Part shown: piece after piece, positions 3,241 to 27,290 of the stretch
Layout: every line of letters starts with the position of its first letter
How positions within the stretch are numbered: the first letter of the stretch is position 1
Origin: Candidatus Gottesmanbacteria bacterium
Lineage (GTDB): Bacteria; Patescibacteriota; Microgenomatia; UBA10105; UBA927
Direction: 5' to 3'
Assembly: GCA_016218255.1 (NCBI GenBank)
Contig: JACREN010000044.1
Coordinates: forward strand, 2,489-66,488
DNA length: 64,000 nucleotides
Made by a program: the position numbers and the translations under genes
The notes under the pieces: model-generated
What the model was told of the DNA's origin: nothing
The model's input: only the letters and a program-made list of their open reading frames with translations
Database searches by the model: none

Positions 3241-3998
3241 TTTGGGTCAGTTTTCCAATACATATTAAGGTTTTCTACATCCGAATATGTGTCCATCGAG
3301 TGCCAAAATCCGCTATGAATATACAGAGAAACCTGACGCTCCTTCACAAGGCGGTGGATTGCTGCGTGCTCATACTCCTCGGGCCGGAGGTAGTTAAAAA
3401 AACTTTTCTTAAATACCATAAAACCGCCGTTTACCCATTCGCGGAGAGACGGTTTTTCAATGAAATCGGTTACAATATTATTTTTATCAACCTTCACCTG
3501 ACCATATTTGCTTCGCGGGTATACACCGGTAATCGTTCCTATGGTATTCTGCTTCTTATGAAAAGAGACGAGTTTTGTGATATCGATATTTCCGACACCG
3601 TCACCGTATGTCACCATAAAATTATCCTCAGTAATATAAGGCTTAATACGTAATATCCGCTCCCCGGTCAGCGTCTCCTGACCGGTTTCAACAAATGTAA
3701 TATTAAAATCGTCAATCCGTTTGTCTTTCTTTCTCAAAGTATGAATTTTCGTTTTACCCGTTCTTGTCGAAAGCGTAAAATCATGCAAAAAATATTTCTG
3801 GTTTAGAAAATAGTCCTTAATCGCATCTCCTTTATACCCAAGAGCAATCACAAAATCTTTATATCCATAATGGGCATAAATTTTCATAATATGCCAAAGA
3901 ATCGGCTTATTGCCGATGGTGACGAGCGGCTTTGGCTTAAACTCCGTCTCCTCTTTTAAGCGGTAACCTATACCGCCGGATAATATTATTGTTTTCAT
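3219..3998 (-). CDS. rfbF: Glucose-1-phosphate cytidylyltransferase
   Basis: 259 aa. N-terminus 'MKTIILSGGIGYRLKEETEFKPKPLVTIGNKPILWHIMKIYAHYGYKDFVIALGYKG' matches the RfbF/DdhA nucleotidyltransferase signature over its whole length. Confidence 0.85.
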   Translation of the reverse strand: MKTIILSGGIGYRLKEETEFKPKPLVTIGNKPILWHIMKIYAHYGYKDFVIALGYKGDAIKDYFLNQKYFLHDFTLSTRTGKTKIHTLRKKDKRIDDFNITFVETGQETLTGERILRIKPYITEDNFMVTYGDGVGNIDITKLVSFHKKQNTIGTITGVYPRSKYGQVKVDKNNIVTDFIEKPSLREWVNGGFMVFKKSFFNYLRPEEYEHAAIHRLVKERQVSLYIHSGFWHSMDTYSDVENLNMYWKTDPKWKIWND

Positions 3999-6116: not shown

Positions 6117-9055
6117 TGTATCCGCGCAGAATAAACTTCAAGGCTTGAAGGATTCGGAGAGCCGACAACGATAATCTTCCGTAAAATGCTGCCGCTGCAA
6201 TCTAATGCGGTCTGAACCGTTTGTCTTCCATGCTGAAGCGGAAATGAACGAAAGTGCCAAAGCCCCCCAATTAATGTCTTTTGGTTTTGATTCTGTTTAC
6301 TCCAGTCCGCATCCTCCGCGCACACCCAGGCAAGCAACATGGTTTTGTACCGAATAAGCGATGACAATGTTTCCTGTATCGAAAAATCGTTCACATAATG
6401 CCAATTGACCCCCGCAAGTTCAAATATCTTATCCGGAGAGTATTGTCTATTGCTAACCGGCTCAATAACGATCTCATCAAGCGATACAGGTGCGGAAGGA
6501 GTCTGCGTAATAACAATCTTCACCGAACGGTATATTCCAGGTATTACCGTCACCGCATGCATTCCGCCATTATTCGGGCTCCAAGAAATCTTTGTATCCT
6601 CACCTATGCGCCCTATCTTTACGTATGATTCTCCGTAACGCGATCCGTAGACTACGCCCTCTAGCGGCATGCGTTCACTTACCATATTTTTCGGTGTATT
6701 GAGCAATATTCTCCCCACATCTGTAGATTCCGCAAAAGAAAGTATTATCTCTATCGGCAAATTATTGTTTCCTAAATAAAATATTTCATCTGGAGCAGGT
6801 GATGGATCGGAAACAAATACTCCATCGATCAACGATTGCGCACGCACCCGCGCATCGGTTTCATCCAGGCCGGATACAGATGCCCGAATCCCCTGTCGAA
6901 TCAAATCAACCTTCTGGATAGCACGATTGATTTGTATCCGGTCATCCAAATTTATTTCTCCCAGTAGACGATCCTGAAAAGACAGCACAGTGAATGAAGA
7001 AAGGATTTCCTGGATGCTCCTTGCAGCTATCGGCGCGTATTCCTTTATCATCCACCAGAATTGTCCCGGTACGCGAGCTTCTTTTGGAATGATTACCGCA
7101 TCGGAAAATGGAAATTGAACATCCGGCAAAATATTCTGACCGAGAGAAATTTCCAACATCGTTGGCAGGAGCAATCTTTCCCCAATTTCACGGCTTGTAA
7201 GCATCGGGCGCTTTGCCAAATAGAGGGTTCCGTTCGTGTCTATTTTCGTAAATTCCGTCTCGGAAACGGCTTCTTCAAAGACGATGGGTACCGGTATAGA
7301 ATTCTCTTTTTCAAAGAAGATTCTTCTCGCCATCCCGGAAATATTCGCAAACACTGACGTCTCAGGATTAGCATAAAAAGCAAAAAACCTGTCCTTCGTA
7401 TATATGCCGGATTCTATAAGATTGCGGATCTCCCGGACATCATTGCTATAAAATAACTCATCCGTTCGATAAAATCCGTATAGCCACCGCCAGCCGGCAA
7501 CATTGACATCAAGTGCATTCCGGACGGGATTTACGGAATAGATAAGCTTCGGCTTTCCGTCGCGGGGAACCATAGCAAAAAATTTATCGATCAACGCCCT
7601 CTCTTTATTACTGATACCCTCAACTATGCCCCGATGACCCTGAATACTCACCATGCTATTCCCCATCAACACGACGAGAGTTACTATCCATCCGACACGA
7701 CCGAATACGATTCCTTTTTTGCCCCAAAGCCAATAAAGACCCACGCCAAACAGCGTACTCACGCCCACAGCGGCAGCAAAAACATATCTCGCTCCCGGGC
7801 CATACGGAGGTGTTATGCGGGAAAAATAAAACGGAAAAAACAATAAATCGCTTTTTGTAGTGATGTAAAGCGGGACGTAAAACATACTGCTCAAGATCAA
7901 TACGACAGAAAAAACAAGAATTTTCGTCACCCAATGCTGGTTTTTCAACCGAAACAACGCGAGAAAACCGATAATAATAAAGCCGATTAAGGACACCAAT
8001 CCGATCCCATATATCAAATACTGCTCAATAAATGGATTTAACACCAGACTTCCGATCCACATCCGCATGGATGGAAAAGCGCCAATAGCATTTGGCATCA
8101 CCAGTTGAGCCATATAATATGCCAAACGCTCGCTGTAGATATCCCATCGGAACGGAGACGCAACCACAACATTGCTCTTCTTCAATACTCCCTCAAGTAC
8201 TGCAGACCATCCGCCTGGAATAAGACGGATTCCGATAAATCCAAGCCACACCAATCCGATCCCAAAGCTCTCTCCCAGACGCATTATAATGCTGCGTTTC
8301 CGCTTTGCTGGCATCCAGAGGATCGCGAAAAGTCCGAACACCAAACCGGCAATCCGTACAAAACCCATTTTGACTGAAGCGATAAAAAATAGTAATGAAA
8401 GCAGATAATATATACTCGCGCGTTTTTGGGAGTAGCGATAAAGAAAAATAAATGAAAGTATATGAAGACCTAATACCAATGGCATACCCTGGGCATTAGC
8501 CTGCCATGAAAACACATCCAAAAATACCGGTGTAGTGGCAAAATACAATGAAGAAAGGAGTGCAATACTTTTTTTATTACTTATGACAAATACTAAAAAA
8601 TATAAACTCACAGCGGCAAAAATAAACCAAAAAAGAGAAACAATATTGTAGAACCACGCATTTGTACCGAACAAAAGATAAGAAAGTACAAATGACGCGA
8701 ATGGATAGCCGTTTATAATGTAATGGAACGGAAAACCTGCAGCGCCATTAGTAACGGGCGTTAATATAGAAGAGCTGTCTTCGGCAAAAAAATAGTAGCG
8801 GAGAATCAATCCGTGCGCGATAACACCTGCAGTCAGTAGTATTCCAATCTGGATCTTATGCTGAGAAATAGTTCTTGCTATCGGGCGAACGAGGTTGCTT
8901 TGCAATAAAAAAATAACGGCTATCACCATTGGCAACGATTGATCTATCACATAGCTCCACCCGACTCCGATTCGGGACTCAAGCCAAACGTAAAGTCCCG
9001 CATTAAAACTCATTATGCTGTAAAAAATTGCCGCAATAATCCACATTAGCGTCAT
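6113..9055 (-). CDS. Large polytopic membrane protein with a C-terminal extracytoplasmic domain of about 500 aa (GT-C-like, function unknown)
   Basis: 980 aa. The N-terminal ~480 aa are strongly hydrophobic with many helices; the C-terminal half is soluble. It has a 4-nt overlap with both flanking genes. Confidence 0.5.
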   Translation of the reverse strand: MTLMWIIAAIFYSIMSFNAGLYVWLESRIGVGWSYVIDQSLPMVIAVIFLLQSNLVRPIARTISQHKIQIGILLTAGVIAHGLILRYYFFAEDSSSILTPVTNGAAGFPFHYIINGYPFASFVLSYLLFGTNAWFYNIVSLFWFIFAAVSLYFLVFVISNKKSIALLSSLYFATTPVFLDVFSWQANAQGMPLVLGLHILSFIFLYRYSQKRASIYYLLSLLFFIASVKMGFVRIAGLVFGLFAILWMPAKRKRSIIMRLGESFGIGLVWLGFIGIRLIPGGWSAVLEGVLKKSNVVVASPFRWDIYSERLAYYMAQLVMPNAIGAFPSMRMWIGSLVLNPFIEQYLIYGIGLVSLIGFIIIGFLALFRLKNQHWVTKILVFSVVLILSSMFYVPLYITTKSDLLFFPFYFSRITPPYGPGARYVFAAAVGVSTLFGVGLYWLWGKKGIVFGRVGWIVTLVVLMGNSMVSIQGHRGIVEGISNKERALIDKFFAMVPRDGKPKLIYSVNPVRNALDVNVAGWRWLYGFYRTDELFYSNDVREIRNLIESGIYTKDRFFAFYANPETSVFANISGMARRIFFEKENSIPVPIVFEEAVSETEFTKIDTNGTLYLAKRPMLTSREIGERLLLPTMLEISLGQNILPDVQFPFSDAVIIPKEARVPGQFWWMIKEYAPIAARSIQEILSSFTVLSFQDRLLGEINLDDRIQINRAIQKVDLIRQGIRASVSGLDETDARVRAQSLIDGVFVSDPSPAPDEIFYLGNNNLPIEIILSFAESTDVGRILLNTPKNMVSERMPLEGVVYGSRYGESYVKIGRIGEDTKISWSPNNGGMHAVTVIPGIYRSVKIVITQTPSAPVSLDEIVIEPVSNRQYSPDKIFELAGVNWHYVNDFSIQETLSSLIRYKTMLLAWVCAEDADWSKQNQNQKTLIGGLWHFRSFPLQHGRQTVQTALDCSGSILRKIIVVGSPNPSSLEVYSARIQ

Positions 9056-10458
9056 TTATTTTTTGAGTATAATACCAAAGCATCCATACGCATCACTTCA
9101 CGGTAATTCTCTCTCATATACGCCAGAAACGGCCATGTGGAAAGCCCGCGGGGCAAATCCGGATGAGCCCAGTCAAACACAATAGCTGCTGGAGGGTTGC
9201 TAGTAAATACCTTCGTTGTTTCAACAAATGGCTCGAGAATAAACGGCGTAAAATTCGTATATTTATTTGCAGGAAGACGGTCAGACAACAAATAGATCAT
9301 CTCGCTCCCGTAGCTTATAATACGGTCTTGCTTATGCGTATTCTCATTTATCCAGACAGCCATTCTTTTTTCAAAATCCCCCCAGTCAGTCAAATATTGC
9401 TCACGGTGAAAACCGTTATCTCTAACAAAACCATTGTATGCACTCATATACCGTGATACCAACGTCATATATCCTATAAACCCGCACACAATGGATAAAC
9501 GGACCCAAGCAGTGTTCTTTTTATGCAACAAACCACGGATCAAATAACCGGCTGCGACGGAAACAAGAGCAAAACTGGTAAATGTCCGATAGGATAAGTA
9601 TGACGGCAACAAAGACGGAATAAGCGCGACAACAAAAAGTGTCAACAAAATAGCTGTCTTCCGTTGCATCCCCAATTGTTTCCATAAGAAAACACAAGGC
9701 AAAAGAAGAATGCCATATGCAAATTCGATATACAAACCGTCCCCGTGATCCAAAAGAGTGAAATTCCGGTATGGACCAACCACAGTATACAGAGAATAAT
9801 ACAGAAAATCGTACAGTGCTCCACGAAAGAAAAAGTATACCCCTATCAAAATAAACGGAACGGTCAACCCAAAGACATATACAAAGCTGCTCCTCATCAG
9901 ACGACTCATAGATTGCTTCCTAATATATAGATAGAATTGAAAAAACGGCAAGATTAAGACCACAAAAATGGTGTTTTGTTTGGTTGCGACAGTAAAGCCC
10001 GCACATATACCCGCTGCTAATGCCCAAACCGGCCGGTTTGTTAACGCATACTGATGAATCAAGAAAAACAGCAAAAGAACCAATAATCCCACCATTAGTT
10101 CGCCCACTTCCACATTGAGGAAGAGTGGAAACAGAAAGACCAAAAAAAATATACACGCCGGATATACTATCTTTCTGTCAATTCTCTTCAAAACCCACAG
10201 AAATATCGACACCAACAGGCCAAACATTACCCAAATAAATAACTGATACGCTGATCCGCTCGCGCCAAACAGTCTGTACCAAGCTGATAACAAAAACATA
10301 TCGAACGGCATACGAAGCCAAATGATATCCTTATACAGCGTTAATCCCTTTGTCATAAACCAGGGATAAATCACACCGGCAGTCCAAACGTGAAATGGAA
10401 GAAAATATATATTAGCAGTTATCCATAAAAGAGACACGAGATACAACATACCCGCCAT
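9052..10458 (-). CDS. Polytopic membrane protein, paralog of 13104..14486 (GT-C/GT87-like candidate)
   Basis: 468 aa. It shares with 13104..14486 an N-terminal 'ITANIYFLPFHVWT...LYKD' region and a TM 'TKQ(N/T)' element. The start codon is ATG at 10458. Confidence 0.5.
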   Translation of the reverse strand: MAGMLYLVSLLWITANIYFLPFHVWTAGVIYPWFMTKGLTLYKDIIWLRMPFDMFLLSAWYRLFGASGSAYQLFIWVMFGLLVSIFLWVLKRIDRKIVYPACIFFLVFLFPLFLNVEVGELMVGLLVLLLFFLIHQYALTNRPVWALAAGICAGFTVATKQNTIFVVLILPFFQFYLYIRKQSMSRLMRSSFVYVFGLTVPFILIGVYFFFRGALYDFLYYSLYTVVGPYRNFTLLDHGDGLYIEFAYGILLLPCVFLWKQLGMQRKTAILLTLFVVALIPSLLPSYLSYRTFTSFALVSVAAGYLIRGLLHKKNTAWVRLSIVCGFIGYMTLVSRYMSAYNGFVRDNGFHREQYLTDWGDFEKRMAVWINENTHKQDRIISYGSEMIYLLSDRLPANKYTNFTPFILEPFVETTKVFTSNPPAAIVFDWAHPDLPRGLSTWPFLAYMRENYREVMRMDALVLYSKNK

Positions 10459-10498
10459 TGTACAAAAGGGGTATTCATTTTACAATCAAACGGAATCT

Positions 10499-11332
10499 AT
10501 GAACGCAGTGATCTTTACCAGTAGCCATCACATGCTCGCCAATTATATCATTAAGCATTTGCTCTCTATGCATGATCTGAATATCGTTGCGATCGTGGAA
10601 TCCGACGCTGTATATCCGGGCAAAGGAAAGTGGCAGTCGCTTATATTTATGATACGGAAATCCGGATTACAGTATGTTGGATCCCAGATAATCAAATTCC
10701 TTTATTTTCATATCGGAAGCACCCTATACGGCTTCTTTCCCGGCAATAAACCGTCACACATTCTCTATTCGTATCATGAAATAACAAAGACTAAACATAT
10801 TCCTATTTTACTTGAAAAAAATATCAACACACAAACATTCATTACCACAATGCAATCACTCAAGCCTGATCTGTTTGTTTCTATTTTTTTCAACCAGATA
10901 TTCAAAAAAAATGTACTTTCGTTGCCAAAGAGAGGTACTATAAATCTCCATCCGGCATATCTTCCGTCATACCGGGGATTAAGTCCGACATTTTGGGTAC
11001 TTGCAAACGGCGAGCATCATACCGGCATCACCGTGCACCGTATAGACAGTGAGGCAATTGACGCTGGACAAATTTTAGGTCAAATCCGGATCCCCATTCT
11101 TGCACAAGATACGGAATACTCCCTTTATTGGCGATGCGTCCGAATGGGCGTTCCTTTGCTTGAGGATATCATTACTTCAATTGATCGAAACAAACGAAAC
11201 CATGCAAAACCTGATAGCCGCGTTAAGCCTAGCTATTTTTCTCTCCCAAAAAAGTCTGATGTCAATCGATTCTGTGCCCGCGGGAGAAAATTTTTAACGC
11301 TTCGGCAACTCGTCGGTTCCCCGAAGTTTTAA
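10499..11332 (+). CDS. Formyltransferase-domain protein (ArnA-N/Fmt-like sugar-nucleotide N-formyltransferase)
   Basis: 277 aa. 'INLHPAYLPSYRGLSPTFWVLANGEHHTGITVHRIDSEAIDAGQIL' matches the formyl_trans_N catalytic core (N/H/D). It is the only plus-strand gene in the first 21 kb and sits between the aminotransferase genes. Confidence 0.75.
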   Translation: MNAVIFTSSHHMLANYIIKHLLSMHDLNIVAIVESDAVYPGKGKWQSLIFMIRKSGLQYVGSQIIKFLYFHIGSTLYGFFPGNKPSHILYSYHEITKTKHIPILLEKNINTQTFITTMQSLKPDLFVSIFFNQIFKKNVLSLPKRGTINLHPAYLPSYRGLSPTFWVLANGEHHTGITVHRIDSEAIDAGQILGQIRIPILAQDTEYSLYWRCVRMGVPLLEDIITSIDRNKRNHAKPDSRVKPSYFSLPKKSDVNRFCARGRKFLTLRQLVGSPKF

Positions 11333-12016
11333 TGAGGCGATCGTATAAGATATAAACATTGGAATGAATCTTGATTTGCTTTCTCCGTAAGGACGGTTAC
11401 GGTAATATACCGGAATTTCATAAAATGTGCCTCCCGCTTGTTTCACTTTTGTTATTAGCCGCATAAAATAATCTCCATACCCGGCAAATAATCCGGCATC
11501 CGAATTTCCGAGTGAAAGGATAAATTTCCGGTCAACACAAAAAAATCCGCTTAAAAAATCAGTAACAGGAAGATGGAATAACAGTCGAAGATATATATTA
11601 AAAAATCGGCTGAGCCAATACCGTCGCGAGTTCTCCATACCGCCACCGGTAATATACCGCGATCCAATAGCAAGTGTTGCTTTTCGACAAGCCTCACCAA
11701 GCTTCGGAATCACAGATGGATCATGGCTCAAGTCTGTATCCATTACCACGACCTGTTTACCCCTGGCTTTCTGAACACCAAACCATATTGCAGAAGCCAG
11801 TCCCCGCTCTTTTTTTCTGACGAAAACCCGAACTGAACGTTTTCCTCTAAACGCATGTTTACATACCACAGCAGTACCATCAGGACTGCTATCGTCGACA
11901 ACGATAGCTTCATATTTCGCTTTCGCAAACAATGCAGTACGAAAAATGCTCTTTATGAGTGGGATAATATTGCCTTTTTCGTTATAAGTTGGAAGAATAA
12001 CGGAAATATCGATCAT
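11294..12016 (-). CDS. Family-2 glycosyltransferase, DPM1-like polyprenol-phosphate sugar synthase (soluble form)
   Basis: 240 aa with motifs 'ISVILPTYNEKGNI', 'VVDDSSPDGT' and 'VMDTDLSHDP', which are DPM1/Ppm1-type. Its 3' end overlaps the formyltransferase 3' end convergently by 39 nt. Confidence 0.8.
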   Translation of the reverse strand: MIDISVILPTYNEKGNIIPLIKSIFRTALFAKAKYEAIVVDDSSPDGTAVVCKHAFRGKRSVRVFVRKKERGLASAIWFGVQKARGKQVVVMDTDLSHDPSVIPKLGEACRKATLAIGSRYITGGGMENSRRYWLSRFFNIYLRLLFHLPVTDFLSGFFCVDRKFILSLGNSDAGLFAGYGDYFMRLITKVKQAGGTFYEIPVYYRNRPYGESKSRFIPMFISYTIASLKLRGTDELPKR

Positions 12017-13107
12017 ACAACACGCAGAATACGAACTATTTGTTTGCAGATATACCGTATATCCTTTTCTGTCACTTTTGCACTCGACGGTAGGCTCATG
12101 CCCCGATCCGAAATATCATCTGAATTCGGAAATGATTTCTTTTTTTTATACATCGGCAAACGATGCAAGGGTACAAAAAATGGCCTTGTTTCAATTCGTG
12201 CGCGAGCGAGTTCTTCCATAAGATATTTTCGGACCGAACAGGAAGGTAAAAGAATGGAATACATCCAATAAATATTACGTGCCCATTCTATGCCAGGCGG
12301 CAAAACAATCCCCCGAACAGATTTTAGAAGCGTATTGTATAGGGCTGCATGTTTTCGTTTTGCAGTAAGAACGACGTCAATGTGCTCCAATTGCGCCAAG
12401 CCGAATGCCGATTGAAGATTAGTTAATCGGTAATTAAAGCCAATTTCGCTATGCATATATTGTTTCTTCTGATCCTGTGCATGAGCCTTCAGATAGGCGA
12501 TCCGGTCGATAATCCCTTTATTGCCGGATACCACCATGCCTCCCTCACCAGTCGTCATAACCTTATTCCCGTAAAAACTAAAACACCCTACATCACCAAT
12601 GGAACCAACTTTTTTGCCTTTATATAGCGCTCCGTGAGACTCACATGCATCTTCTATTACAAGAAGATCATGTTCCCGCGCAACCGCAAGTATTGGATCC
12701 ATATCCGCGGGATGACCGAACAAATGCGCGACAATAATCGCTTTAGTTTTTTTCGTAATGCTACGTTTAATCGCACCAGGATCAATATTCCATGTCTCCA
12801 TGTTTATGTCTGCTAAAACCGGAGTAGCTCCAGCATAGACAACGACATTCGCTGTTGATACAAAAGTAAAATCCGGTACGATCACTTCATCTCCTGGTCC
12901 AATACCTAAAGCAACCAATGCGAGATGAAGCGCTGCAGTTCCACTCGCAACACTGGTTGCATGAGCCACACCACAAAACTTCGCAAATTTATTCTCAAAC
13001 AGATCGACATACGATCCATGCGATATCCAAGTGGATTTTATACAATCCGTCACGTACTTGAGTTCATTTCCCAAAAGTATCGGTTCTGATGCGGGTATAA
13101 TTTTCAT
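12013..13107 (-). CDS. DegT/DnrJ/EryC1-family PLP-dependent sugar aminotransferase
   Basis: 364 aa with 'ATSVASGTAALHLAL' and the catalytic Lys in 'FSFYGNKVMTTGEGG'. The start is typical, 'MKIIPASEPILLGNELKYV'. Confidence 0.85.
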   Translation of the reverse strand: MKIIPASEPILLGNELKYVTDCIKSTWISHGSYVDLFENKFAKFCGVAHATSVASGTAALHLALVALGIGPGDEVIVPDFTFVSTANVVVYAGATPVLADINMETWNIDPGAIKRSITKKTKAIIVAHLFGHPADMDPILAVAREHDLLVIEDACESHGALYKGKKVGSIGDVGCFSFYGNKVMTTGEGGMVVSGNKGIIDRIAYLKAHAQDQKKQYMHSEIGFNYRLTNLQSAFGLAQLEHIDVVLTAKRKHAALYNTLLKSVRGIVLPPGIEWARNIYWMYSILLPSCSVRKYLMEELARARIETRPFFVPLHRLPMYKKKKSFPNSDDISDRGMSLPSSAKVTEKDIRYICKQIVRILRVV

Positions 13108-14486
13108 AACGTATAAATACCAATCGTGTCAAACTCTTGTTGGAGTGTATAGTTCTGACGCAAAAAGTCAAGGAAACCCCATCCGGAGAGCTCCGGCCAA
13201 TCATCTATCAGTCTCCGGTCGTACACGACCACTTTAGGCGGTTTACTTATCAGCTCTGCAGTGGTCTGAGCAAACGGTAAATAATCAATGGGCATTCCGC
13301 CCACGTACCTGTTAAACGGCAGTCTGTTCGCCCTCATCATTATAATGTTATTTGCCATGTTAAACACTTTTTCTGTTTCTTCGGTGTTATCTCGCAACCA
13401 ACGCGCAGCCGCCAGTTCGTTCTCGCTATAATCTACGAGATATTGATTAGGAGAGAAACCATTATCAAGAATGTATCTTCTATATTCATTGACCGGTCTA
13501 ATGATAGATATCAAAAAAACTATAAAGGCCGAAACAAACAACATCTTTCTGGGGGTATTTCCTTTCGTTTTTATATATGTGTTTGCCTCCAGCAATACGA
13601 ACGCTGCGCCAATACACAACAGTGGAAAAGAGGCGACCAAACGGTATGACCAATACGAGGGTAACAGCATAACAAAAAGTGCCAGTATGAATCCCGATAA
13701 CAAATGTTTTACCTTTGACTGTGAGATACTTGTTCTCGCGATCAACAAAAAAGGCACGAGAATTGCCATATATACGCCTATCATATTCAACGCGGTATTT
13801 ATCCCCCATGCCTTTGCCCACCCTTTGTATATTGTCGCTACAAAAAGAAGACCCTGGATATAGTCATTGAGCGCACCATGAAACCAAAGAAACAGAACAA
13901 CAGCAGCCACTGGCATAAGCACTCCCAGGCTATATAGGCCAATCCATTTCCATCGTTTCCACAAAAAAAGAACCATAACAAGGATCAATACACCCGAAGT
14001 CTGCTTCGTCATAAGGCTTAAACCGGAAAATAGTCCTGCCCAGATAAGCCATATCGGCTTATTGCGCCGGGTTAACTCCCAAGAAGAGAAAAACGTGCAC
14101 AACGCAAAAAAACCAACGAGTATTTCCTCTATCTCTGCGTTTGAAAATAAGGGGAACAAAAACACAATAAACATGCTATAAGCAAGCAGCGCAAGTCTTA
14201 GGGATAATTTCCGGAGATATCCAAACAATAGAAATCCTGTCAGTAGAAATACTACTGCTACGACCAGCTGGTAACTTATTGGATGTACGCCGATAATTTT
14301 ATACACGGCCGCCAGCAGCGATATATCAATCATGCCTCTGTTCCATAGATGATCTCTATACGGCAATAGTCCCCGAAGAAGCAACCATGGCCGATACAAA
14401 CCTTCGGTCCAGGGATAAAAGGGAAGTAAAAAAATATTTACCGTTATCCAGATACTTCCCAAAGCTAAAACGATAAAGGGAATCAT
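13104..14486 (-). CDS. Polytopic membrane protein, paralog of 9052..10458 (GT-C/GT87-like candidate)
   Basis: 460 aa. N-terminus 'ITVNIFLLPFYPWTEGLYRPWLLLRGLLPYRDH' is collinear with the 468-aa paralog. It shares the 'MTKQT' TM element. Confidence 0.5.
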   Translation of the reverse strand: MIPFIVLALGSIWITVNIFLLPFYPWTEGLYRPWLLLRGLLPYRDHLWNRGMIDISLLAAVYKIIGVHPISYQLVVAVVFLLTGFLLFGYLRKLSLRLALLAYSMFIVFLFPLFSNAEIEEILVGFFALCTFFSSWELTRRNKPIWLIWAGLFSGLSLMTKQTSGVLILVMVLFLWKRWKWIGLYSLGVLMPVAAVVLFLWFHGALNDYIQGLLFVATIYKGWAKAWGINTALNMIGVYMAILVPFLLIARTSISQSKVKHLLSGFILALFVMLLPSYWSYRLVASFPLLCIGAAFVLLEANTYIKTKGNTPRKMLFVSAFIVFLISIIRPVNEYRRYILDNGFSPNQYLVDYSENELAAARWLRDNTEETEKVFNMANNIIMMRANRLPFNRYVGGMPIDYLPFAQTTAELISKPPKVVVYDRRLIDDWPELSGWGFLDFLRQNYTLQQEFDTIGIYTL

Positions 14487-14488
14487 AG

Positions 14489-15265
14489 CTATTTCACAGC
14501 CTCAACATAACAAAGAGGCCAAAATAACCGGTATTTCAGAAGTGATTGAATAAATCGCCGAAACCACTTCGGAATAAACGCAATAGGGTAATACATGGGA
14601 AAATACGCGACTGTTTTGACCGTGAACCCGGCTTTTAAGAATAACTGTCGCAATTGTCCCGGCGTAAAGGACTGTTCATAACCGTAATGCAAATATTTAC
14701 CACTCATCCACTTCAAATGAAACCATTCCATGAGTTGCCGAAGAATCGGCACATTAGGTATATCGCCCCGCAACTGATGATATGTAAGAGTGGTAAGAGA
14801 AACGACCGGAACAACGGCGATCATCGTCCCTCCCGGCTTAAGCACTCGATATGCCTCCTTTATCGCTTTCTTCGTACTCCGAACATATTCCAAAGACATG
14901 CAGGACCAAATAAATGAGAACTCATTTTCACGAAATGGCAACGCGAGCAAATTTCCTTGAACAAAAAATCCACGGCTGCCACGTTTTTTGAATAATTGTT
15001 TCGATTTGATAACCGCTTCTTTGGTTATATCTACACCGGTCACATGCCCTCCTGATTGGGCAACCAAGCTCGACACCCATGCAACGCCGCACCCAAGGTC
15101 CAAAAACGAAATGGAGTTCCATTTTCTATGATACTTCAAAAGAAATCGCCAATAGGATTGAATGGTAGGATCTTTTTCTATCACTCGGTCAAGAGATTCT
15201 TTCTTATGTAATCCTTCCCACCGCATCTTGGACAGCAGTACATCTGTGGTAGCTATAGGTTTCAT
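14489..15265 (-). CDS. Class I SAM-dependent methyltransferase
   Basis: Motif I 'FLDLGCGVAWVS' and post-I 'VTGVDI', then 'VLKPGGTMIAV'. The ORF track extends to 15394. An internal ATG ('MKPIATT') at 15265 gives an ATGA overlap with the upstream gene that ends at 15262. Confidence 0.75.
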   Translation of the reverse strand: MKPIATTDVLLSKMRWEGLHKKESLDRVIEKDPTIQSYWRFLLKYHRKWNSISFLDLGCGVAWVSSLVAQSGGHVTGVDITKEAVIKSKQLFKKRGSRGFFVQGNLLALPFRENEFSFIWSCMSLEYVRSTKKAIKEAYRVLKPGGTMIAVVPVVSLTTLTYHQLRGDIPNVPILRQLMEWFHLKWMSGKYLHYGYEQSFTPGQLRQLFLKAGFTVKTVAYFPMYYPIAFIPKWFRRFIQSLLKYRLFWPLCYVEAVK

Positions 15266-16173
15266 GAGATCGATACGTCTGCCATGCCTATCTGATAAAA
15301 ATAATTCTTTCTGCCGCTGTAATACAGAACAAGTCTGTTCCCCTCCCTGTAAGGACATGCACGGCTTGCAGAAATCGCGTCCCATGATCCCCAAGTCACA
15401 TCAAGGACAGGATTAGCCGAATATTTTTTCCAATGAATCAAATCACGACTTTCAGCCGCACCGGTCCGCTCAATACCTGAAGCGTCGATACCGCTGTAAA
15501 ACATTACATACACACCGCCATATTCGATAACTCTGGGATCGGATATGCTTTTCTCATCCCATGCACCCGCACTTCCCACATCCAGAACCGGCTTCGGAAA
15601 CCGTGTAGTAATCGACGACAATGTCTTTCCGGTCGCCAGACCTACCCGTTCCCGCTCGCCGTCATGGCCGGCATAATACATATAGTATATGCCCTTTTTC
15701 CGATAAACCGCGCACCGGCTCACATGCCGCTTTTCCCACCACGCCGCACCGACACGAAAAATCGGATTTGACGGATACCTTCGCCAATTAACGCCATCCG
15801 TGCTATCCGCCAGACCGATCTCTTCCAGCCAGTCTCCAACCCTGCTTCCGTCATAAAGCATGGATATATTTTTTCCGTGGTCAAACACATACGCATGAGC
15901 GGTAAAATCGCTATCCCACGAATCTTCTACTCCGTTTGGTAACGCCACCACCCCCGTTTTTACCCAATGCGTCAGACTCTCACCTCTTGCTGCAAGCGTA
16001 TAATGCCGGATTCCTAATCCGATGCTTTTTCCGGTATAAAAAAGCAAACGGTGCTTCCCCAAGCGGACTGCCACAGGATGATACGCCCACAACGCATCAG
16101 GGGCAAAAAAATTACCGGAAAATATTCCCGGAGAAAGAATCGGCTTAGGATATTTTTTAATCTGAATTCTCAT
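15262..16173 (-). CDS. Five-bladed beta-propeller glycoside hydrolase/phosphorylase-like protein (GH130/GH43-like fold)
   Basis: 303 aa with repeated W-D/E blade signatures: 'SWDSDFTAHAYVF', 'GAWDEKSISDPRVIEYGGVYVMFYSG' and 'GSWDAISASRA'. This resembles GH130 mannoside phosphorylases. Confidence 0.45.
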   Translation of the reverse strand: MRIQIKKYPKPILSPGIFSGNFFAPDALWAYHPVAVRLGKHRLLFYTGKSIGLGIRHYTLAARGESLTHWVKTGVVALPNGVEDSWDSDFTAHAYVFDHGKNISMLYDGSRVGDWLEEIGLADSTDGVNWRRYPSNPIFRVGAAWWEKRHVSRCAVYRKKGIYYMYYAGHDGERERVGLATGKTLSSITTRFPKPVLDVGSAGAWDEKSISDPRVIEYGGVYVMFYSGIDASGIERTGAAESRDLIHWKKYSANPVLDVTWGSWDAISASRACPYREGNRLVLYYSGRKNYFYQIGMADVSIS

Positions 16174-16180
16174 GTTTTGC

Positions 16181-16819
16181 TCATTCAGTATTCTTTTTTG
16201 TAATTATCGCTGCATTATACGCACAAAATGCTCTTGGCATAAGATGTTCCATGATGAACTCGTATATCTTAAACAACGGTAGAAACGCCGAAGGATAGAG
16301 ATGAGCCTCAAAAAAACGAAACGAAATCGTATCCTCACTAAATACAGTCCGCACCAATTTCATAAAGTATGATTGTATAAAATGGTCGTGTCCGCGCATG
16401 CGCACCATATGAGGATAGAATAACGGGTTGTACCGATTACCTTCAACAATCACTACTGACCCGCCCGGCTTACATACCCGCCGCAATTCTCTCAGTCCTT
16501 CTTTGTGTTTATCCGTGCGCTGTCTTCGTTCATCGATATGGTGCAGGACGTCATGAACAAAAACATAATCGAATGCATCACTCTTATAAGGCAATGCGTA
16601 TATGCTTCCCAATGTGAAACGGGACCGAAAACGCCCCATGGCGTTATGTCTGTATATATCTGTACCCCTCCATACTAATCCATACTCCCGTAAAAAGATT
16701 TCTGCGTCAGTTCCCTCACCACATCCCACGTCTAATATAACACTTCCCTTTCTCCAGGAGACTCCAAGCTTATTAAAAAAATCATTCTTATATTGATTGT
16801 ACCGGGTAATACGTTTCAT
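16181..16819 (-). CDS. Class I SAM-dependent methyltransferase
   Basis: 212 aa with motif I 'ILDVGCGEGTDA' and 'VCKPGGSVVIVEGN'. Confidence 0.75.
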   Translation of the reverse strand: MKRITRYNQYKNDFFNKLGVSWRKGSVILDVGCGEGTDAEIFLREYGLVWRGTDIYRHNAMGRFRSRFTLGSIYALPYKSDAFDYVFVHDVLHHIDERRQRTDKHKEGLRELRRVCKPGGSVVIVEGNRYNPLFYPHMVRMRGHDHFIQSYFMKLVRTVFSEDTISFRFFEAHLYPSAFLPLFKIYEFIMEHLMPRAFCAYNAAIITKKNTE

Positions 16820-16832: not shown

Positions 16833-17954
16833 TCACAATTTATGATATTTTCTAATGGCAGTATGTCCTAATATAATCTTTACCACCTTTTCCGATACAT
16901 TGACATCGCGGTAGTCAGCGGGAATAACCCGATGTTCCTGGAACTCACCTGTCGCCATTTTAATCGCATCATTTAACGCATCTTTATGAAATCCGGTTAC
17001 GATAATAGACCCTGCATCAAAAGCTTCGGGTCGTTCCGTGGATACCCGCACTTGCACAGCCGGAAAACCTGCGATTGCGGATTCCTCCTGTATCGTACCG
17101 CTATCTGAAATAACACAGAAGGCATTTTTTTCCAGTCTTGCGAATTCTAAAAACCCAAACGGTTTATGACAGTGAATAAGCGGATGCAACGAACCCAATG
17201 ACGCCAGTTTTTTCTGAGTTCTGGGATGCACAGATAGCAAAACAGGCTTCTTATAAGCATCTGCCAGACTACCCAATGAAGCAAATAGCTCACGGATTCT
17301 GTCCGGCTTTTCTATATTTTCCTCTCTGTGAACGCTGACAAGAAAATATCCCCCTGGTATAAGATTCAAATCAGTAAGCACAGTATTACCGGATATAGCA
17401 GAATTATAATAAGCAAGAATTTCCGCGTATGGACTTCCGGTGACAAATATAGTTTTTGGGTGAAGTCCTTCACGGATAAGATACCGCCTGGCATGTTCCG
17501 TGTAACAAAGATTAAAATCGCTGATATGATCCACAATTCTCCGATTTACTTCCTCCGGCACATCCCAATCGAACGAACGATTTCCTGCTTCCATATGGAA
17601 AATGGGAATATGCATCCGTTTAGCGATCACCGCCGACAAGCAACTATTGGTATCTCCCAATACGAGAAGTGCATCAGGCATTTCTTTTTTAAGGACTGCT
17701 TCCGATTGTTCAATTATTCGCGCGATCTGCCCCCCCAGGGAATCTGACTTCACATCCAAAAAGTAATCAGGTCTTCGAAGCTCTAATTCCTCAAAAAAAA
17801 TATCGCTCAATTCATAATCATAACTTTGCCTCGTATAGACCATGATGTGATGAAAATACTCATCCAGTTTCGGCAACACCCGTGATAAACGGATAATTTC
17901 CGGCCGAGTACCAACTATAGACATAATGGTCAATGACTTTTTCTGTTGTTTCAT
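16833..17954 (-). CDS. UDP-N-acetylglucosamine 2-epimerase family (WecB/FnlC/CapG-like)
   Basis: 373 aa with 'MSIVGTRPEIIRL' and 'HMEAGNRSFDWDVPEEVNRR', which are epimerase_2 signatures. Confidence 0.85.
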   Translation of the reverse strand: MKQQKKSLTIMSIVGTRPEIIRLSRVLPKLDEYFHHIMVYTRQSYDYELSDIFFEELELRRPDYFLDVKSDSLGGQIARIIEQSEAVLKKEMPDALLVLGDTNSCLSAVIAKRMHIPIFHMEAGNRSFDWDVPEEVNRRIVDHISDFNLCYTEHARRYLIREGLHPKTIFVTGSPYAEILAYYNSAISGNTVLTDLNLIPGGYFLVSVHREENIEKPDRIRELFASLGSLADAYKKPVLLSVHPRTQKKLASLGSLHPLIHCHKPFGFLEFARLEKNAFCVISDSGTIQEESAIAGFPAVQVRVSTERPEAFDAGSIIVTGFHKDALNDAIKMATGEFQEHRVIPADYRDVNVSEKVVKIILGHTAIRKYHKL

Positions 17955-19006
17955 TTTTTTTGAATTTGTATTAGCTCATCTTGTATTTCAGAGAGCCCGG
18001 ATAATATCCGTACAACCTCTTCAACCTTTGCACGGGGAGTATTTTCAGATGTATATGCCTCCTTCATGGATTCAAGCTTTCGTTCACCGTCCAAAAAATA
18101 ACGGTTGTACTCTAGCCCCTGACTTTCCGGTGGGATATCAAAATAGCTACCACGGTCTACTACCCGAGCAAGTTCTTCACATGTCAAAAGCGTTTCATGG
18201 TATTTCTCTCCTGCCCGAATACCAACTTCGCGATACCCTTTTGCGTGTGAAAAAATTCTGCACACAGCTTCTACTAGCACACCCACAGTACACGCACGCG
18301 ACTTCCGCACATACAGATGTCCATTTTCTCCATTTACAAGCGCATACAATACCAAATCAACCGCTTCCGGCAATGGCAGAAGAAATCGAGTCATCGAAGG
18401 GTTGGTCACAGGCAGGGTGTTATTTTTTTTAACCTGCTCAATAAAAAATGGAAGCACCGACCCCCGCGAATAAAGGACATTCCCGTAGCGCACACCGCAA
18501 AAAACAGTATGCTTGTTTCCACTCTCCGAGAGCTTCCGCGCAGCAGCGACCATAACCTTTTCCATAATCGCCTTAGTCATCCCCATAGCATTTATGGGGT
18601 ACGCCGCCTTATCCGTACTCAAAATCACAACCCTGGATACGTCGGCAGCAATTGCGCTATCCAGCACATTCTGGGTGCCTAATACGTTTGTTTTAACGGC
18701 CTCAATTGGAAAAAATTCACATGACGGCACCTGCTTGAGCGCAGCCGCATGGAATACAAAATCCACTCCGTCCATGGCTTCTGAAACACTAGCTCCATCC
18801 CGCACATCGCCAATAATAAATCTTAAAAGCCGCGAATTATAATAGTTTCGCATGTCAAATTGCTTCTTTTCATCACGGCTGAAAATGACTATCCGTGCCG
18901 GCTCAAGTGACAATAGTTTTTCAATAACCGTATTGCCAAATGATCCCGTTCCCCCAGTTATTAAAATCGTTTTATTTTTTATATGCTCTCTGACGCTTTT
19001 TTTCAT
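17951..19006 (-). CDS. UDP-GlcNAc 4,6-dehydratase/epimerase of the CapD/FnlA/PseB family
   Basis: 351 aa with 'KTILITGGTGSFGNTVIEKLL' and 'IVIFSRDEKKQ', which are Polysacc_synt_2 short-form hallmarks. Confidence 0.8.
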   Translation of the reverse strand: MKKSVREHIKNKTILITGGTGSFGNTVIEKLLSLEPARIVIFSRDEKKQFDMRNYYNSRLLRFIIGDVRDGASVSEAMDGVDFVFHAAALKQVPSCEFFPIEAVKTNVLGTQNVLDSAIAADVSRVVILSTDKAAYPINAMGMTKAIMEKVMVAAARKLSESGNKHTVFCGVRYGNVLYSRGSVLPFFIEQVKKNNTLPVTNPSMTRFLLPLPEAVDLVLYALVNGENGHLYVRKSRACTVGVLVEAVCRIFSHAKGYREVGIRAGEKYHETLLTCEELARVVDRGSYFDIPPESQGLEYNRYFLDGERKLESMKEAYTSENTPRAKVEEVVRILSGLSEIQDELIQIQKK

Positions 19007-20175
19007 AATGATAAAGCACGGATGACATTAATTGTGTATAGAGTGTTGTAGTCAAAACGCCGAACGTACGATATCGCACATTTTCTATATGAGGTATGCA
19101 ATTTTTCGTCCGTCAGGAACCTTACTATAGCACGAACCAATGCTTCTTTTCTATAAGGAACGACGATCCCGCACCTATGAATTTGTATATCGCGGGCGCT
19201 GGCAATTGCATCTGTTACCACTACCGGTAACCCGCATACCATATAGTCCTTTATTTTCCCTGGATCTGCATTTTTTACTTTTTCATCCAGAATATACGTA
19301 TTAAATGGTGCAACACCTACCGCGCCTCGGCATAGTATTCGTTCAAGCTGTTTCCGGTCAGTTACCCAACCGTAAAAGCGGACATACTTTGTGAGATGCA
19401 ATATGGCAGTCAACTTCTGAAGTGCCTCCATCTGCTCGCCCCCCCCGACAATAACTAACGACGCATCTGGTACCTTCTTACGTATATCAGCAAATGCGCG
19501 AATAAGCATATCTACCCCCATATGCATCACAAGGTGACCGGAAAAAACAATGAGACGAGTGTTGATTTGTGACCGCGGCAGGCGCTTCACCTGATCAAAC
19601 CAAATGCCAATCGGAACCGTATGCTGACTACCCATCTCCCCCTTAGAGCGGTGAAATTTCCTCCTCGCAGCAACCATGGCTTCTGACACATTCCATGTTT
19701 CATCAGAATGTCGCACACAAAATAAATCAATTGCATGATACAGTCGATTCATGAATGGATTTGCGAATCGAGTCGGGAAATAATCAATCGTATAATATAC
19801 AACCCGCCGTACTATGCCCAATCGTTTCAAAAATAGCCCCAGAAGTGCGTTCATATTATCAACGCCGATAAACAAATCAAATCTCTTTCCCGCTTGAAGG
19901 ATACGGCCCAGAGCGAATAACGCTTCAAACCCTGAACTTAATACGACATTACGAAACCGCACTGGTGCACGAACACCAGAAACGATGTTATTACCGCGGC
20001 TGAGCTCTGCAAAGGATCGATCAAAATCATGAACATCTGCCATCGGCAATGGATGGCTTATATAAAGCAAATTCCGGCACCCATGAACGCGCAAAAAATC
20101 TCTCATCGCCTGTGAAGCAGAATACACTCTGGCATGGGTAGCCAAAATAATTGACGATTGTTTAATGATATTCAT
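19003..20175 (-). CDS. GT4 (GT-B fold) glycosyltransferase
   Basis: 390 aa. The C-terminal Glycos_transf_1-type region 'LVIVGGGEQMEALQKL...FYGWVTDRKQLERILCRGAVGVAPF' has the E-x7-E-like pattern. Confidence 0.7.
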   Translation of the reverse strand: MNIIKQSSIILATHARVYSASQAMRDFLRVHGCRNLLYISHPLPMADVHDFDRSFAELSRGNNIVSGVRAPVRFRNVVLSSGFEALFALGRILQAGKRFDLFIGVDNMNALLGLFLKRLGIVRRVVYYTIDYFPTRFANPFMNRLYHAIDLFCVRHSDETWNVSEAMVAARRKFHRSKGEMGSQHTVPIGIWFDQVKRLPRSQINTRLIVFSGHLVMHMGVDMLIRAFADIRKKVPDASLVIVGGGEQMEALQKLTAILHLTKYVRFYGWVTDRKQLERILCRGAVGVAPFNTYILDEKVKNADPGKIKDYMVCGLPVVVTDAIASARDIQIHRCGIVVPYRKEALVRAIVRFLTDEKLHTSYRKCAISYVRRFDYNTLYTINVIRALSL

Positions 20176-20987
20176 AGTCCCAATGTCCTACCCAATCCCT
20201 CATAAATCAATGTGGTCGGCTCCCACCCCAATATTTGACTCGCACGCGAAAAGGAACAAATTGGGAGTACTGATTCCTTATTCGGCGATGGCGCATACGA
20301 TACTGAAATTTCTTTTCCAACCAATTTACTCATTGTATGAATAAGCCCATTGATAGATACTCGTTCTCCTGAGCAAACATCGATTACTGGACAAATTTCC
20401 ACCCCTCTATACATAACCGACCGAAATATTGCTAAGGCAGCATCTTTCACATAGAGATAATCACGAATTTGCTTACCATCTCCATGAACCACGATCGGCT
20501 TTCCGGACTGGATTAGGTGAGCGAATGTCGAAATTGCTGAATTATAAAACGGACGGCCACCGGGGCCATAAAGATTCGAAAAACGCAATACTACTGCCCG
20601 CATTCCCCTTGATCTGCTTTCATATCCAATCACCTCTTCAGCGCATCGCTTGCTCCAACCGTAAAAACTATTCTTCCATGCTGCCTGCACGGATGAAGCA
20701 AATATTAGCGCTGCCTTCGGACAGTATAATCGCATCGCTTCCATAAGGCGGACGGTACCTAGCAGATTTACCTTCGCCAGCTTATAATTCGTATCACGGT
20801 TAGCTCCGGCGAGATGCACTACTGCAGACGCTCCTATCAATAATTCCGAAAGGGATTGAGGAATGAATAAGTCTTGCGTTTCTTTTTTTAGAAATGACGT
20901 GGTAACTGATTCTTGCTGAAAGAGTTGCATCACATGAGCACCAAGGAATCCTGTTGCCCCGGTGATAGCAATTTTTTTCGTTTTCAT
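20172..20987 (-). CDS. Short NAD(P)-dependent SDR, sugar-nucleotide reductase/epimerase-like
   Basis: 271 aa with 'KIAITGATGFLGAHV' and 'YGWSK' (YxxxK). Its position after a CapD-like dehydratase suggests a 4-reductase role. Confidence 0.65.
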   Translation of the reverse strand: MKTKKIAITGATGFLGAHVMQLFQQESVTTSFLKKETQDLFIPQSLSELLIGASAVVHLAGANRDTNYKLAKVNLLGTVRLMEAMRLYCPKAALIFASSVQAAWKNSFYGWSKRCAEEVIGYESRSRGMRAVVLRFSNLYGPGGRPFYNSAISTFAHLIQSGKPIVVHGDGKQIRDYLYVKDAALAIFRSVMYRGVEICPVIDVCSGERVSINGLIHTMSKLVGKEISVSYAPSPNKESVLPICSFSRASQILGWEPTTLIYEGLGRTLGL

Positions 20988-27123: not shown

Positions 27124-27290
27124 AGTGCTTTTTCGGCAAAATAAAAATTATTGGGGAGATATTTGAATTTCTTGGGCATGAACGGCTGTGGTGGCTCGCC
27201 CCGCCGATTATCATATTGCTCTTGTTTGGTCTTCTGTTTGTCCTGTCTCACGGTACGGTGCTTGCCCCATTTTTGTATCCACTATTCTGA
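27120..27290 (+). CDS. Tiny single-TM membrane protein (56 aa) of a family often found next to carbamoyltransferases
   Basis: The ATG at 27120 overlaps the stop of the SGNH gene (ATGA). The product is 'MKCFFGKIKIIGEIFEFLGHERLWWLAPPIIILLLFGLLFVLSHGTVLAPFLYPLF'. It is not called as such in the ORF track. Confidence 0.5.
   Translation: MKCFFGKIKIIGEIFEFLGHERLWWLAPPIIILLLFGLLFVLSHGTVLAPFLYPLF

Follow-up and report, generated by a model that had tools for sequence, protein, structure and literature searches.

A metagenome-assembled genome of Candidatus Gottesmanbacteria, a member of the Microgenomates within the candidate phyla radiation (CPR), encodes a compact gene module in which a stand-alone sugar N-formyltransferase-like enzyme (hereafter FT) sits among a short glycosyltransferase of family 2 (GT2), a DegT-family aminotransferase, and two polytopic GT-C glycosyltransferases (Table 1; NCBI proteins MBI5449572-575 for the four-gene finding). 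We analyzed this module within a 64-kb stretch of DNA, hereafter the window, where it forms one part of a very large surface-glycosylation island. As judged from sequence, the module is Arn-like in its enzyme classes and implied order of steps, and it is neither an orthologue nor a member of the Arn pathway. We hold with moderate confidence that it operates in four steps of Arn-like order, in which a sugar would be aminated, formylated, loaded onto a lipid, and transferred outside. The strongest new evidence is the conserved co-occurrence of FT, a short GT2, DegT, and GT-C proteins across distant phyla. A first-pass annotation of the window, whose open reading frames (ORFs) are all present at their given positions, had envisaged a formamido sugar carried on a lipid and transferred by a GT-C enzyme; as a hypothesis, this proposal is supported by the class of FT, the motifs of the GT2, and the conserved gene context.

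At the center of the module, FT is annotated by NCBI as a "hypothetical protein" (MBI5449573.1). It matches the Formyl_trans_N domain over residues 109-215 with 87 bits and lacks PF02911 in Pfam searches. Its catalytic triad, N149/H151/D188, is invariant in 26 homologues, among which the HPxxLPxYRG motif is invariant or near-invariant. Alignment with ArnA-type enzymes recovers both the Asn-His-Asp triad and the HxSLLPxxRG folate loop: "NLHPAYLPSYRG" aligns with "NLHGSLLPKYRG" of ArnA, and D188 with ArnA D140. A single-sequence search of the PDB places WbkC (85 bits) and the ArnA formyltransferase domain (83) nearest to FT, and a profile of the FT family ranks the ArnA domain first (132 bits) and WbkC second (121), followed by Fmt (96-117), QdtF (102), FdtF (96), WlaRD (94), and PurN (<80). 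The AlphaFold 2 model (pLDDT 91.8) likewise finds its best Foldseek match in ArnA-N (5j63, 1e-18). By these comparisons, the ArnA formyltransferase domain and WbkC are the nearest relatives of solved structure, each at about 22-24% identity. The earlier expectation that FT would cluster with sugar N-formyltransferases rather than with Fmt or GART is borne out by the absence of PF02911 and by the profile ranking. Assignment as Fmt was rejected, given the missing PF02911 and a TIGR00460 score of 98 bits versus a cut-off of 201.5; the chain ends about 60 residues past the catalytic core. Assignment as PurN/GART was also rejected (TIGR00639, 61 bits versus a cut-off of 150), PurN being a protein of about 210 residues. 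Every locus with FT at ≥32% identity and enough flanking sequence presents a glycan-biosynthesis rather than a purine context, and Fmt-like proteins that do have PF02911 are confined to distant matches covering 40-60% of the FT query.

Both ends of the FT gene are well defined. The N-terminal MxxVIFTS motif is conserved among homologues, which supports the start at 10499, and the last residues (GRKF...) are conserved as well, which marks the 3' end as real coding sequence. The TAA stop of FT (11330-11332) and the reverse-strand stop of the GT2 gene (11294-11296) agree with the 39-nt convergent overlap first described for this locus, and the overlap is real because both FT ends are conserved in homologues. 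Close relatives at two other loci exhibit overlaps of 33 nt (L008) and 27 nt (L009; L and P numbers are our handles for loci and proteins). FT thereby opposes an otherwise continuous minus-strand chain spanning 9052..14486, with its 3' end inside the GT2 gene, and GT2 read-through toward the downstream 468-aa GT-C gene would be antisense to the entire FT gene. This inverted orientation is kept in L008, L009, L010, and L012, and in more distant relatives FT is codirectional with its neighbors. Scans for promoters and terminators around FT returned chance-level signals only.

FT represents a distinct clade. An exhaustive search of 1.84 billion representatives yielded about 126 clusters at 50% identity with E ≤1e-30, most of them 255-290 aa long and aligned to the query end to end. 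Two sequence features set the clade apart from all characterized sugar N-formyltransferases. One is a conserved insertion of about 40 residues (about 44-78) that forms two helices, 44-55 and 57-78, with an invariant G56 and a conserved face composed of Y59, Q63, K66, F70, and Y77; ArnA and WbkC both lack it. The other is the C-terminal motif SYFSLPxK..V..F...GRKF, which is conserved in the clade. A role of the insertion as membrane anchor received little support, as neither its hydrophobic moment nor its mean hydrophobicity resembles that of a membrane segment. One candidate member, P0031, was set aside because it is 28% identical and lies in an unrelated context (ClpB, nitroreductase) in L006/L007.

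The GT2 partner of 240 residues consists of a GT-A domain and has no predicted transmembrane (TM) segment. Its best match in the PDB is the Pyrococcus DPMS (5mlz, 99 bits over residues 3-217), followed by ArnC (52) and GtrB (44). Its "MDTDLSHDP," "GSRY," and "R.YGESK" align with "MDADLQHPP," "GSRY," and "RARGESK" of PfDPMS; in extended form, VVMDTDLSHDP, IGSRY, and R.YGESK match the DxD and Arg residues of polyprenyl-phosphate glycosyltransferases. The protein therefore possesses DxDLxxxP and the Arg equivalents of PfDPMS R117 and R202, residues that contact phosphates and whose motif roles have been described (PMC12690121). Because of this best match and the DxD/Arg alignment, we assign it as a putative DPM1-like lipid-phosphate sugar synthase and not an ArnC orthologue: the ArnC model NF007986 scores 51.7 bits versus a cut-off of 529, and the two C-terminal TM helices of ArnC are missing. 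The description "DPM1/ArnC-like" given previously thus stands in its polyprenyl-phosphate part and falls in its ArnC part. The NCBIfam model for PpgS scores 17 bits. BLAST gave no clear-cut orthology among the GT2s adjacent to FT at different loci, as they share 23-28% identity and a paralogue in the window (38435..39118) scores equally.

The DegT aminotransferase next to the GT2 is most similar in the PDB to GDP-perosamine synthase (3bn1, 326 bits); models of the LegC/PseC type score highest in NCBIfam, yet below their cut-offs. We predict that it acts at C4 of a nucleoside diphosphate (NDP)-4-keto-6-deoxyhexose. Its orthologues adjoin the GT2 in L010 and L012. In the window, the GT2, DegT, and 460-aa GT-C genes are joined by successive 4-nt overlaps, which suggests translational coupling. 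For the 460-aa protein, Pfam gives PMT_2 only and NCBI the name GT39. The 468-aa protein has no Pfam match and is its paralogue, with 31% identity over the full length (E 2e-72); its orthologues adjoin FT in L009 (53%) and L010 (38%). The GT-C fold is indicated by a polytopic N-terminal module and conserved acidic residues in the first outer loop. Membership in the ArnT family (GT83) was rejected, as phmmer returned no sequence match in the PDB at E up to 1. Of the "ArnT-like" enzymes that were thought to surround FT, these two are indeed GT-C proteins; the ArnT affiliation was not upheld, nor was the GT-C identity of the 705-aa and 980-aa membrane proteins further downstream.

The association of these enzymes recurs well beyond Gottesmanbacteria. 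We searched for related loci with a 13-sequence FT alignment and counted gene context at 15 loci with FT identity of ≥32%. A short GT2 lacking TM segments lies no more than two genes from FT in 13 of the 15, the two others being L011, at a contig end, and L018, on a 4.8-kb contig. The carriers comprise CPR bacteria, one DPANN archaeon, Desulfobacterota, and Chitinivibrionales, and DegT, GT-C proteins, and S-adenosylmethionine (SAM)-dependent methyltransferases are usually found alongside. L010 (47% FT identity) keeps the full arrangement of the window, with minus-strand GT-C, DegT, and GT2, plus-strand FT, and minus-strand GT-C; the short contigs L008 (71%) and L009 (63%) match it in their visible parts, and L012 (45%) keeps GT-C, DegT, and GT2 with one methyltransferase gene inserted beside FT. 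L012 (CAYUJR010000001.1) is labeled "uncultured Gammaproteobacteria," and its block is 36-60% identical to Gottesmanbacteria proteins; the label may be a binning or classification error.

At the more distant loci (32-46% FT identity), the same enzyme types appear in varied order. Among metagenome contigs, GT2 and FT are codirectional and overlapping in L002 and L003; L004 carries an operon of a GT2-methyltransferase fusion, FT, DegT, and a 741-aa membrane protein; and L001 carries a GT2-methyltransferase fusion, a methyltransferase, FT, and a 1573-aa YfhO protein. A Saccharibacteria locus (L014) reads YfhO, RmlB (above cut-off), FT, GT2, DegT, and YfhO; a Desulfobacterota symbiont (L016) has GT2-FT, a 515-aa protein, DegT, and YfhO; and a Chitinivibrionales locus (L015) has FT, a methyltransferase, a DUF2079 membrane protein, and GT2. 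The locus of an Undinarchaeota archaeon (L017) encodes a short-chain dehydrogenase/reductase (SDR), a PMT_2 GT-C, an MprF-flippase-like protein, an overlapping GT2-FT pair, DegT, a dehydratase-like SDR, and a phosphohexomutase. Start and stop codons overlap at the GT2/FT loci of L002, L003, L004, and L017. Gene fusions are also found: FT is joined to SAM methyltransferases in either order (e.g., P0153 and P0167), once to a hexapeptide acyltransferase (P0236, 431 aa), and once to a polytopic membrane protein of about 780 residues (P0140, 1052 aa, possibly an artefact of gene calling or assembly). The extension of P0140 is marginally similar to the 741-aa protein of L004 (E 0.009) and shows no similarity to the 980-aa protein of the window.

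Considered together with the neighboring genes, these assignments lead us to propose the following route. A cytidylyltransferase and a 4,6-dehydratase of the RmlB/CDP type (2281..3998) would probably make the NDP-4-keto-6-deoxyhexose; this pair is the likely source of the substrate. DegT would aminate this intermediate at C4; the sugar is probably a 4-amino-4,6-dideoxyhexose. Using N10-formyl-tetrahydrofolate, FT would convert the NDP-amino sugar into an NDP-formamido sugar, an assignment based on the DegT and 4,6-dehydratase neighbors; formylation would pull the transamination forward and yield the form accepted by the next enzyme. The short DPM1-like GT2 would then load the formamido sugar onto polyprenyl phosphate at the cytoplasmic membrane face, and, after flipping, both GT-C paralogues could pass it to extracytoplasmic acceptors, with protein, wall polymer, or lipoglycan all possible. 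The SAM methyltransferase encoded next to the 460-aa GT-C probably methylates the sugar too, as a probable tailoring partner of the module. As for the fate of the formyl group, domains of the NodB/ArnD (PF01522), PIG-L, or YdjC type are found neither among the 52 ORFs of the window, where the first-pass annotation had already seen no ArnD-like deformylase, nor among the genes annotated at L001-L005, L010, and L019. With no deformylase encoded nearby, the final glycan most likely keeps its formyl group.

Comparison with the Arn (Pmr) pathway, by which Gram-negative bacteria modify lipid A in polymyxin resistance (ArnB, ArnA-FT, ArnC, ArnD, ArnE/F, ArnT), delineates both the likeness and its limits. 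The UDP-glucuronic acid oxidative decarboxylase (the C-terminal part of ArnA), ArnD, and ArnE/F are absent from the module, none of them being found among the 52 window ORFs. Because the decarboxylase is missing, the sugar of the module would not be 4-amino-4-deoxy-L-arabinose (Ara4N); the enzymes point instead to a 6-deoxyhexose derivative. The remaining components differ as well: in contrast to ArnC, the GT2 is DPM1-like and free of TM segments, at about a tenth of the ArnC cut-off (52 bits versus 529); unlike ArnA-FT, FT stands alone, without the C-terminal subdomain and with the 40-residue insertion; and the module has two GT-C paralogues, neither of which is an ArnT orthologue. CPR bacteria are described as devoid of lipopolysaccharide (LPS) and an outer membrane; lipid A can therefore not be assumed as the acceptor.

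A second point of reference is the pair of Per and WbkC from the biosynthesis of Brucella O-antigen, since DegT finds its best solved relative in perosamine synthase and FT its best single-sequence match in WbkC. Like FT, WbkC is stand-alone, about 250 residues long, and equipped with the Asn-His-Asp triad, and it acts on the C4 amine of a 6-deoxyhexose, as is predicted for FT. The group of WbkC, WbtJ, VioF, WlaRD, QdtF, FdtF, and Rv3404c, however, feeds Leloir transferases, whereas FT is linked to a lipid-phosphate loader and GT-C proteins. Moreover, the module has no GDP-mannose 4,6-dehydratase, and the neighboring dehydratases are of the RmlB/CDP-glucose type.

The module also resembles the mycobacterial system of PpgS (Rv3631) and Rv3779, which puts galactosamine on arabinogalactan. 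There, a short, soluble-type DPM1-like synthase makes a polyprenyl-phosphate N-acyl amino sugar for a GT-C enzyme in an LPS-free bacterium; the N-acyl group is an acetyl from UDP-N-acetylgalactosamine that is removed later, and no formyltransferase takes part. The PpgS model scores just 17 bits on the window GT2. In the broader class of three-component systems, a polyprenyl-phosphate sugar synthase serves GT-C transferases on the outer membrane face (PMC11127046; PMC5836110). Examples include GtrA/GtrB/Gtr*, CsbB/GtcA/YfhO, PgfS/PgfM1/PgfM2, and the Citrobacter set of polyprenyl-phosphoribose synthase, MATE flippase, and GT136. The likeness extends to the YfhO-type and PMT_2-type GT-C proteins at related loci. 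In contrast to these systems, the module encodes dedicated amination, formylation, and probably methylation of the donor, its synthase has no TM helices, and GtrA, SMR, and MATE flippases were not found in the window. The module is probably a variant of the widespread three-component glycosylation systems with built-in tailoring of the donor. Our literature search returned no described module of formyltransferase, polyprenyl-phosphate glycosyltransferase, and GT-C outside Arn.

A number of observations weigh against the proposed route. The margin of the ArnA domain over Fmt in the profile search is modest (132 versus 117 bits). All FT loci are dense, GT2-rich glycan islands in which a GT2 neighbor is fairly often expected by chance. 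The GT2s adjacent to FT fall into two subfamilies about 25% identical, distinguished in motif alignment as DTDLSHDP/GESK and DIDLE/KKSTV, so the partner of FT is an enzyme type and not a single orthologue, and the polyprenyl-phosphate assignment covers the first of these subfamilies. Within the minus-strand run of 222-21859, FT is the sole credible plus-strand gene, as the first-pass annotation had recognized for its block; it runs opposite to the remaining operon genes, an unusual arrangement for a gene of a tightly coupled pathway. In L019, the orthologue of the 460-aa GT-C accompanies a unit of methyltransferase, GH130-like protein, and methyltransferase and lacks DegT-GT2-FT beside it; this GT-C is hence not exclusively tied to FT. 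The nucleotide carrier is ambiguous, as DegT and FT resemble GDP-perosamine enzymes and no Gmd-type dehydratase accompanies them. Synthase and GT-C are both encoded in the window, and no flippase is recognizable there. Finally, all of the chemistry, including substrates, step order, lipid carrier, acceptor, and fate of the formyl group, is what we infer from enzyme families and gene order.

With respect to flipping, searches of the window by tblastn and blastp recovered no MprF-like flippase either. Such a protein appears only at the archaeal locus L017, where an LPG_synthase_TM (MprF flippase-domain) protein is encoded at 2732..3712 between the GT-C and the GT2-FT pair, a placement that marks it as a candidate for flipping the lipid-linked sugar.

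Four other explanations deserve consideration. The module could be a full analogue of Arn in which the formyl group is transient, removed by a deformylase unrelated to ArnD or encoded elsewhere, and a free cationic amino sugar reaches the surface. In Arn, the formyl group serves only as a ticket for ArnC, which does not accept the free amine (PMC12690121); the window covers only 64 kb of the genome, and candidate deformylases lie nearby in the SGNH/GDSL hydrolase (25354..27123) and in the sizeable extracytoplasmic parts of the 705-aa and 980-aa proteins. We nevertheless find this version unlikely, if worth serious attention, as the domain searches came back empty in the window ORFs and at seven related loci, SGNH enzymes usually cut esters rather than amides, and stable formamido sugars such as the N-formylperosamine made by WbkC are common end products in O-antigens (PMC8889640). 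Alternatively, the NDP-formamido sugar might go straight to cytoplasmic Leloir glycosyltransferases (GT2/GT4), as in the O-antigens of Brucella and Francisella, and the proximity of the DPM1-like GT2 and GT-C genes would be a by-product of a crowded island. The characterized stand-alone enzymes WbkC, WbtJ, VioF, WlaRD, QdtF, and FdtF all feed Leloir pathways, and several GT4 and other GT2 genes are at hand in the window. Crowding, however, sits poorly with a short, TM-free GT2 at most two genes away in 13 of 15 loci spread over very different phyla, with the start/stop overlaps in L002, L003, L004, and L017, or with the recurrence of GT-C proteins and the one FT fused to a polytopic membrane protein, and we judge such a direct route decidedly unlikely.

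The unusual architecture of FT invites a different alternative, namely, that its substrate is the sugar already loaded on the lipid or a non-sugar amine, with the helical insertion binding the lipid-linked amino sugar, the GT2, or another membrane-bound substrate so that formylation takes place at the membrane. Both the conserved insertion missing from ArnA and WbkC, with its invariant G56 and Y59/Q63/K66/F70/Y77 face, and the membrane-protein fusion in P0140 would fit. Still, the insertion shows no strong hydrophobic or amphipathic character, formylation of lipid-linked sugars has no known precedent, and P0140 could be a gene-calling or assembly artefact. ArnC, moreover, requires a sugar that was formylated beforehand (PMC12690121), and we rate formylation at the membrane or on another amine as very unlikely. 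It is barely conceivable that FT is a housekeeping Met-tRNA formyltransferase or PurN present in the island by chance. Its Fmt scores are fair (98 bits with TIGR00460, and 117 bits for Bacillus anthracis Fmt with the family profile), but PF02911 is absent, the scores fall far under the cut-offs (201 bits for Fmt, 150 for PurN), the context is consistently that of sugar pathways, and the Fmt-like proteins with PF02911 are distant matches of 40-60% coverage. Formylation of the NDP-amino sugar before its loading onto polyprenyl phosphate continues to be the route we favor.

Table 1. Genes and gene sets of the 64-kb Gottesmanbacteria window, with positions, strands, and family matches
Feature	Position	Strand	Match or remark
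Stand-alone sugar N-formyltransferase-like enzyme (FT), 277 aa	10499..11332	+	PF00551
Short DPM1/DPMS-like GT2, 240 aa; predicted polyprenyl-phosphate glycosyltransferase	11294..12016	-	PF00535
DegT-family pyridoxal phosphate-dependent aminotransferase	12013..13107	-	PF01041, 417 bits
GT-C glycosyltransferase A, 460 aa, PMT_2/GT39-like	13104..14486	-	PMT_2, 35 bits
GT-C paralogue B, 468 aa	9052..10458	-	Paralogy to 13104..14486
SAM-dependent methyltransferase	14489..15394	-	PF08241, PF13649
Glucose-1-phosphate cytidylyltransferase	3219..3998	-	TIGR02623, 264 bits
NDP-hexose 4,6-dehydratase	2281..3240	-	TIGR01181, 183 bits; TIGR02622, 175 bits
Second DegT	222..1349	-	39% identical to first DegT
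ArnC/PgfS-type GT2	1346..2374	-	Two C-terminal TM helices
Polytopic membrane protein, 705 aa	3999..6116	-	
Polytopic membrane protein, 980 aa	6113..9055	-	
UDP-2-acetamido-2,6-dideoxy-L-hexose-like set (L-FucNAc/QuiNAc type)	16833..20987		
Bacillosamine or legionaminic-acid-type precursor set	29262..33355		
SGNH/GDSL-domain protein, 589 aa (25354..27123), beside NodU/CmcH-type carbamoyltransferase	25354..29273	+	
PMT_2 paralogues, 683/681 aa	23336..25387 and 33352..35397		37% identity
YfhO/PTPS_related-like paralogues, 525-541 aa	41213..42790, 49127..50722, 59290..60915		30-33% identity
Tandem proteins, 540-544 aa	50719..56554		35-36% identity; two with PMT_2 matches

The genes flanking the module provide further detail on its possible partners. 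Methyltransferases stand beside or are fused with FT or GT2 in L001, L002, L004, L010, L012, and L015 and in P0024, P0153, P0154, and P0167. For the one adjacent to FT in L012, the PDB returned only generic SAM methyltransferases, which do not separate N- from O-methylation. The methyltransferase of the window, whose place in the module is suggested by this recurrence, is also part of a unit consisting of methyltransferase, a GH130/GINT1-like beta-propeller protein, methyltransferase, and GT-C (13104..16819) that is conserved without FT in L019 (5200..9410); the GH130-like protein may be a phosphorylase-type or glycosyltransferase-like enzyme. Dehydratases of the RmlB type adjoin FT elsewhere, the one in L014 scoring 388 bits, above the cut-off. 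A GDP-perosamine route was considered and gained no confirmation, as neither the 4,6-dehydratase of the window nor any of nine neighboring SDRs is Gmd-like, most of those tested being of the RmlB/GalE/LegB or GDP-fucose-synthase type. Next to this dehydratase, a second DegT and an ArnC/PgfS-type GT2 (223 bits with PgfS and 109 bits full length with ArnC, both under the cut-offs) form a parallel set, 222..2374, that may draw on this precursor too. The 705-aa and 980-aa proteins have 10-11 predicted TM segments and large C-terminal domains. Neither has a Pfam or NCBIfam match, and hhalign probabilities against the GT-C profile of about 2% or less gave no support to a GT-C assignment; both might be transferases or factors on the acceptor side. 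A weak similarity (E 1e-5) links the 980-aa protein to the 741-aa protein encoded after FT-DegT in L004.

More broadly, the 52 ORFs tile the window almost gaplessly, with just three gaps over 60 nt, and nearly all are devoted to glycan synthesis. They include at least 12 polytopic proteins of the PMT_2, YfhO, or PTPS_related type, four DPM1/GtrB/ArnC-like GT2s, three DegT aminotransferases, several 4,6-dehydratases and epimerases, methyltransferases, one carbamoyltransferase, several GT4s, and further GT2s. Three separate paralogous families of polytopic GT-C-like proteins have expanded inside the island. The L-FucNAc/QuiNAc-type set encodes an FnlA/CapE-like dehydratase with a Polysacc_syn_2C domain, a WbcJ-like reductase (91 bits), and a UDP-N-acetylglucosamine 2-epimerase family protein, with an interleaved GT4. 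The bacillosamine or legionaminic-acid-type set encodes a cupin/FdtA-like 128-aa protein, a PglF/PseB-like dehydratase, a DegT, a hexapeptide N-acetyltransferase, and an Epimerase_2 protein; no NeuB-like synthase was found in the window. The pairing of SGNH/GDSL protein and carbamoyltransferase suggests O-acyl or O-carbamoyl editing of glycans, and a carbamoyltransferase adjoins a short GT2 in L019 as well. Small DUF5667 proteins lie at the borders of glycosylation sub-blocks, both in the window (21865..22449 and 47857..48372) and in L002 (186..668) and L004 (12199..12834).

If the proposed route is correct, N-formylation as a gate for loading lipid carriers would not be peculiar to polymyxin resistance, and would represent a reusable design present in ultra-small CPR bacteria, one DPANN archaeon, and a few other phyla. 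A bolder version, which we offer as a tentative possibility rather than an expectation, is that the formyl "ticket" known so far only from lipid A Ara4N is an ancient and widespread means of directing amino sugars into the polyprenyl-phosphate/GT-C route. A dedicated FT clade would serve this purpose, its helical insertion docking on a TM-less DPM1-like synthase or on the membrane to channel the product, and a methylated formamido-dideoxyhexose would be a lineage-typical surface decoration of CPR/DPANN episymbionts. The assignments presented here give a first functional handle on a protein clade annotated as "hypothetical" by NCBI, and they supply a simple set of four enzymes with predicted substrates and may yield new enzymes for making lipid-linked formamido sugars. 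They are relevant as well to CPR genomes with their very large expansions of GT-C proteins, since CPR surface glycans probably mediate attachment to the host.

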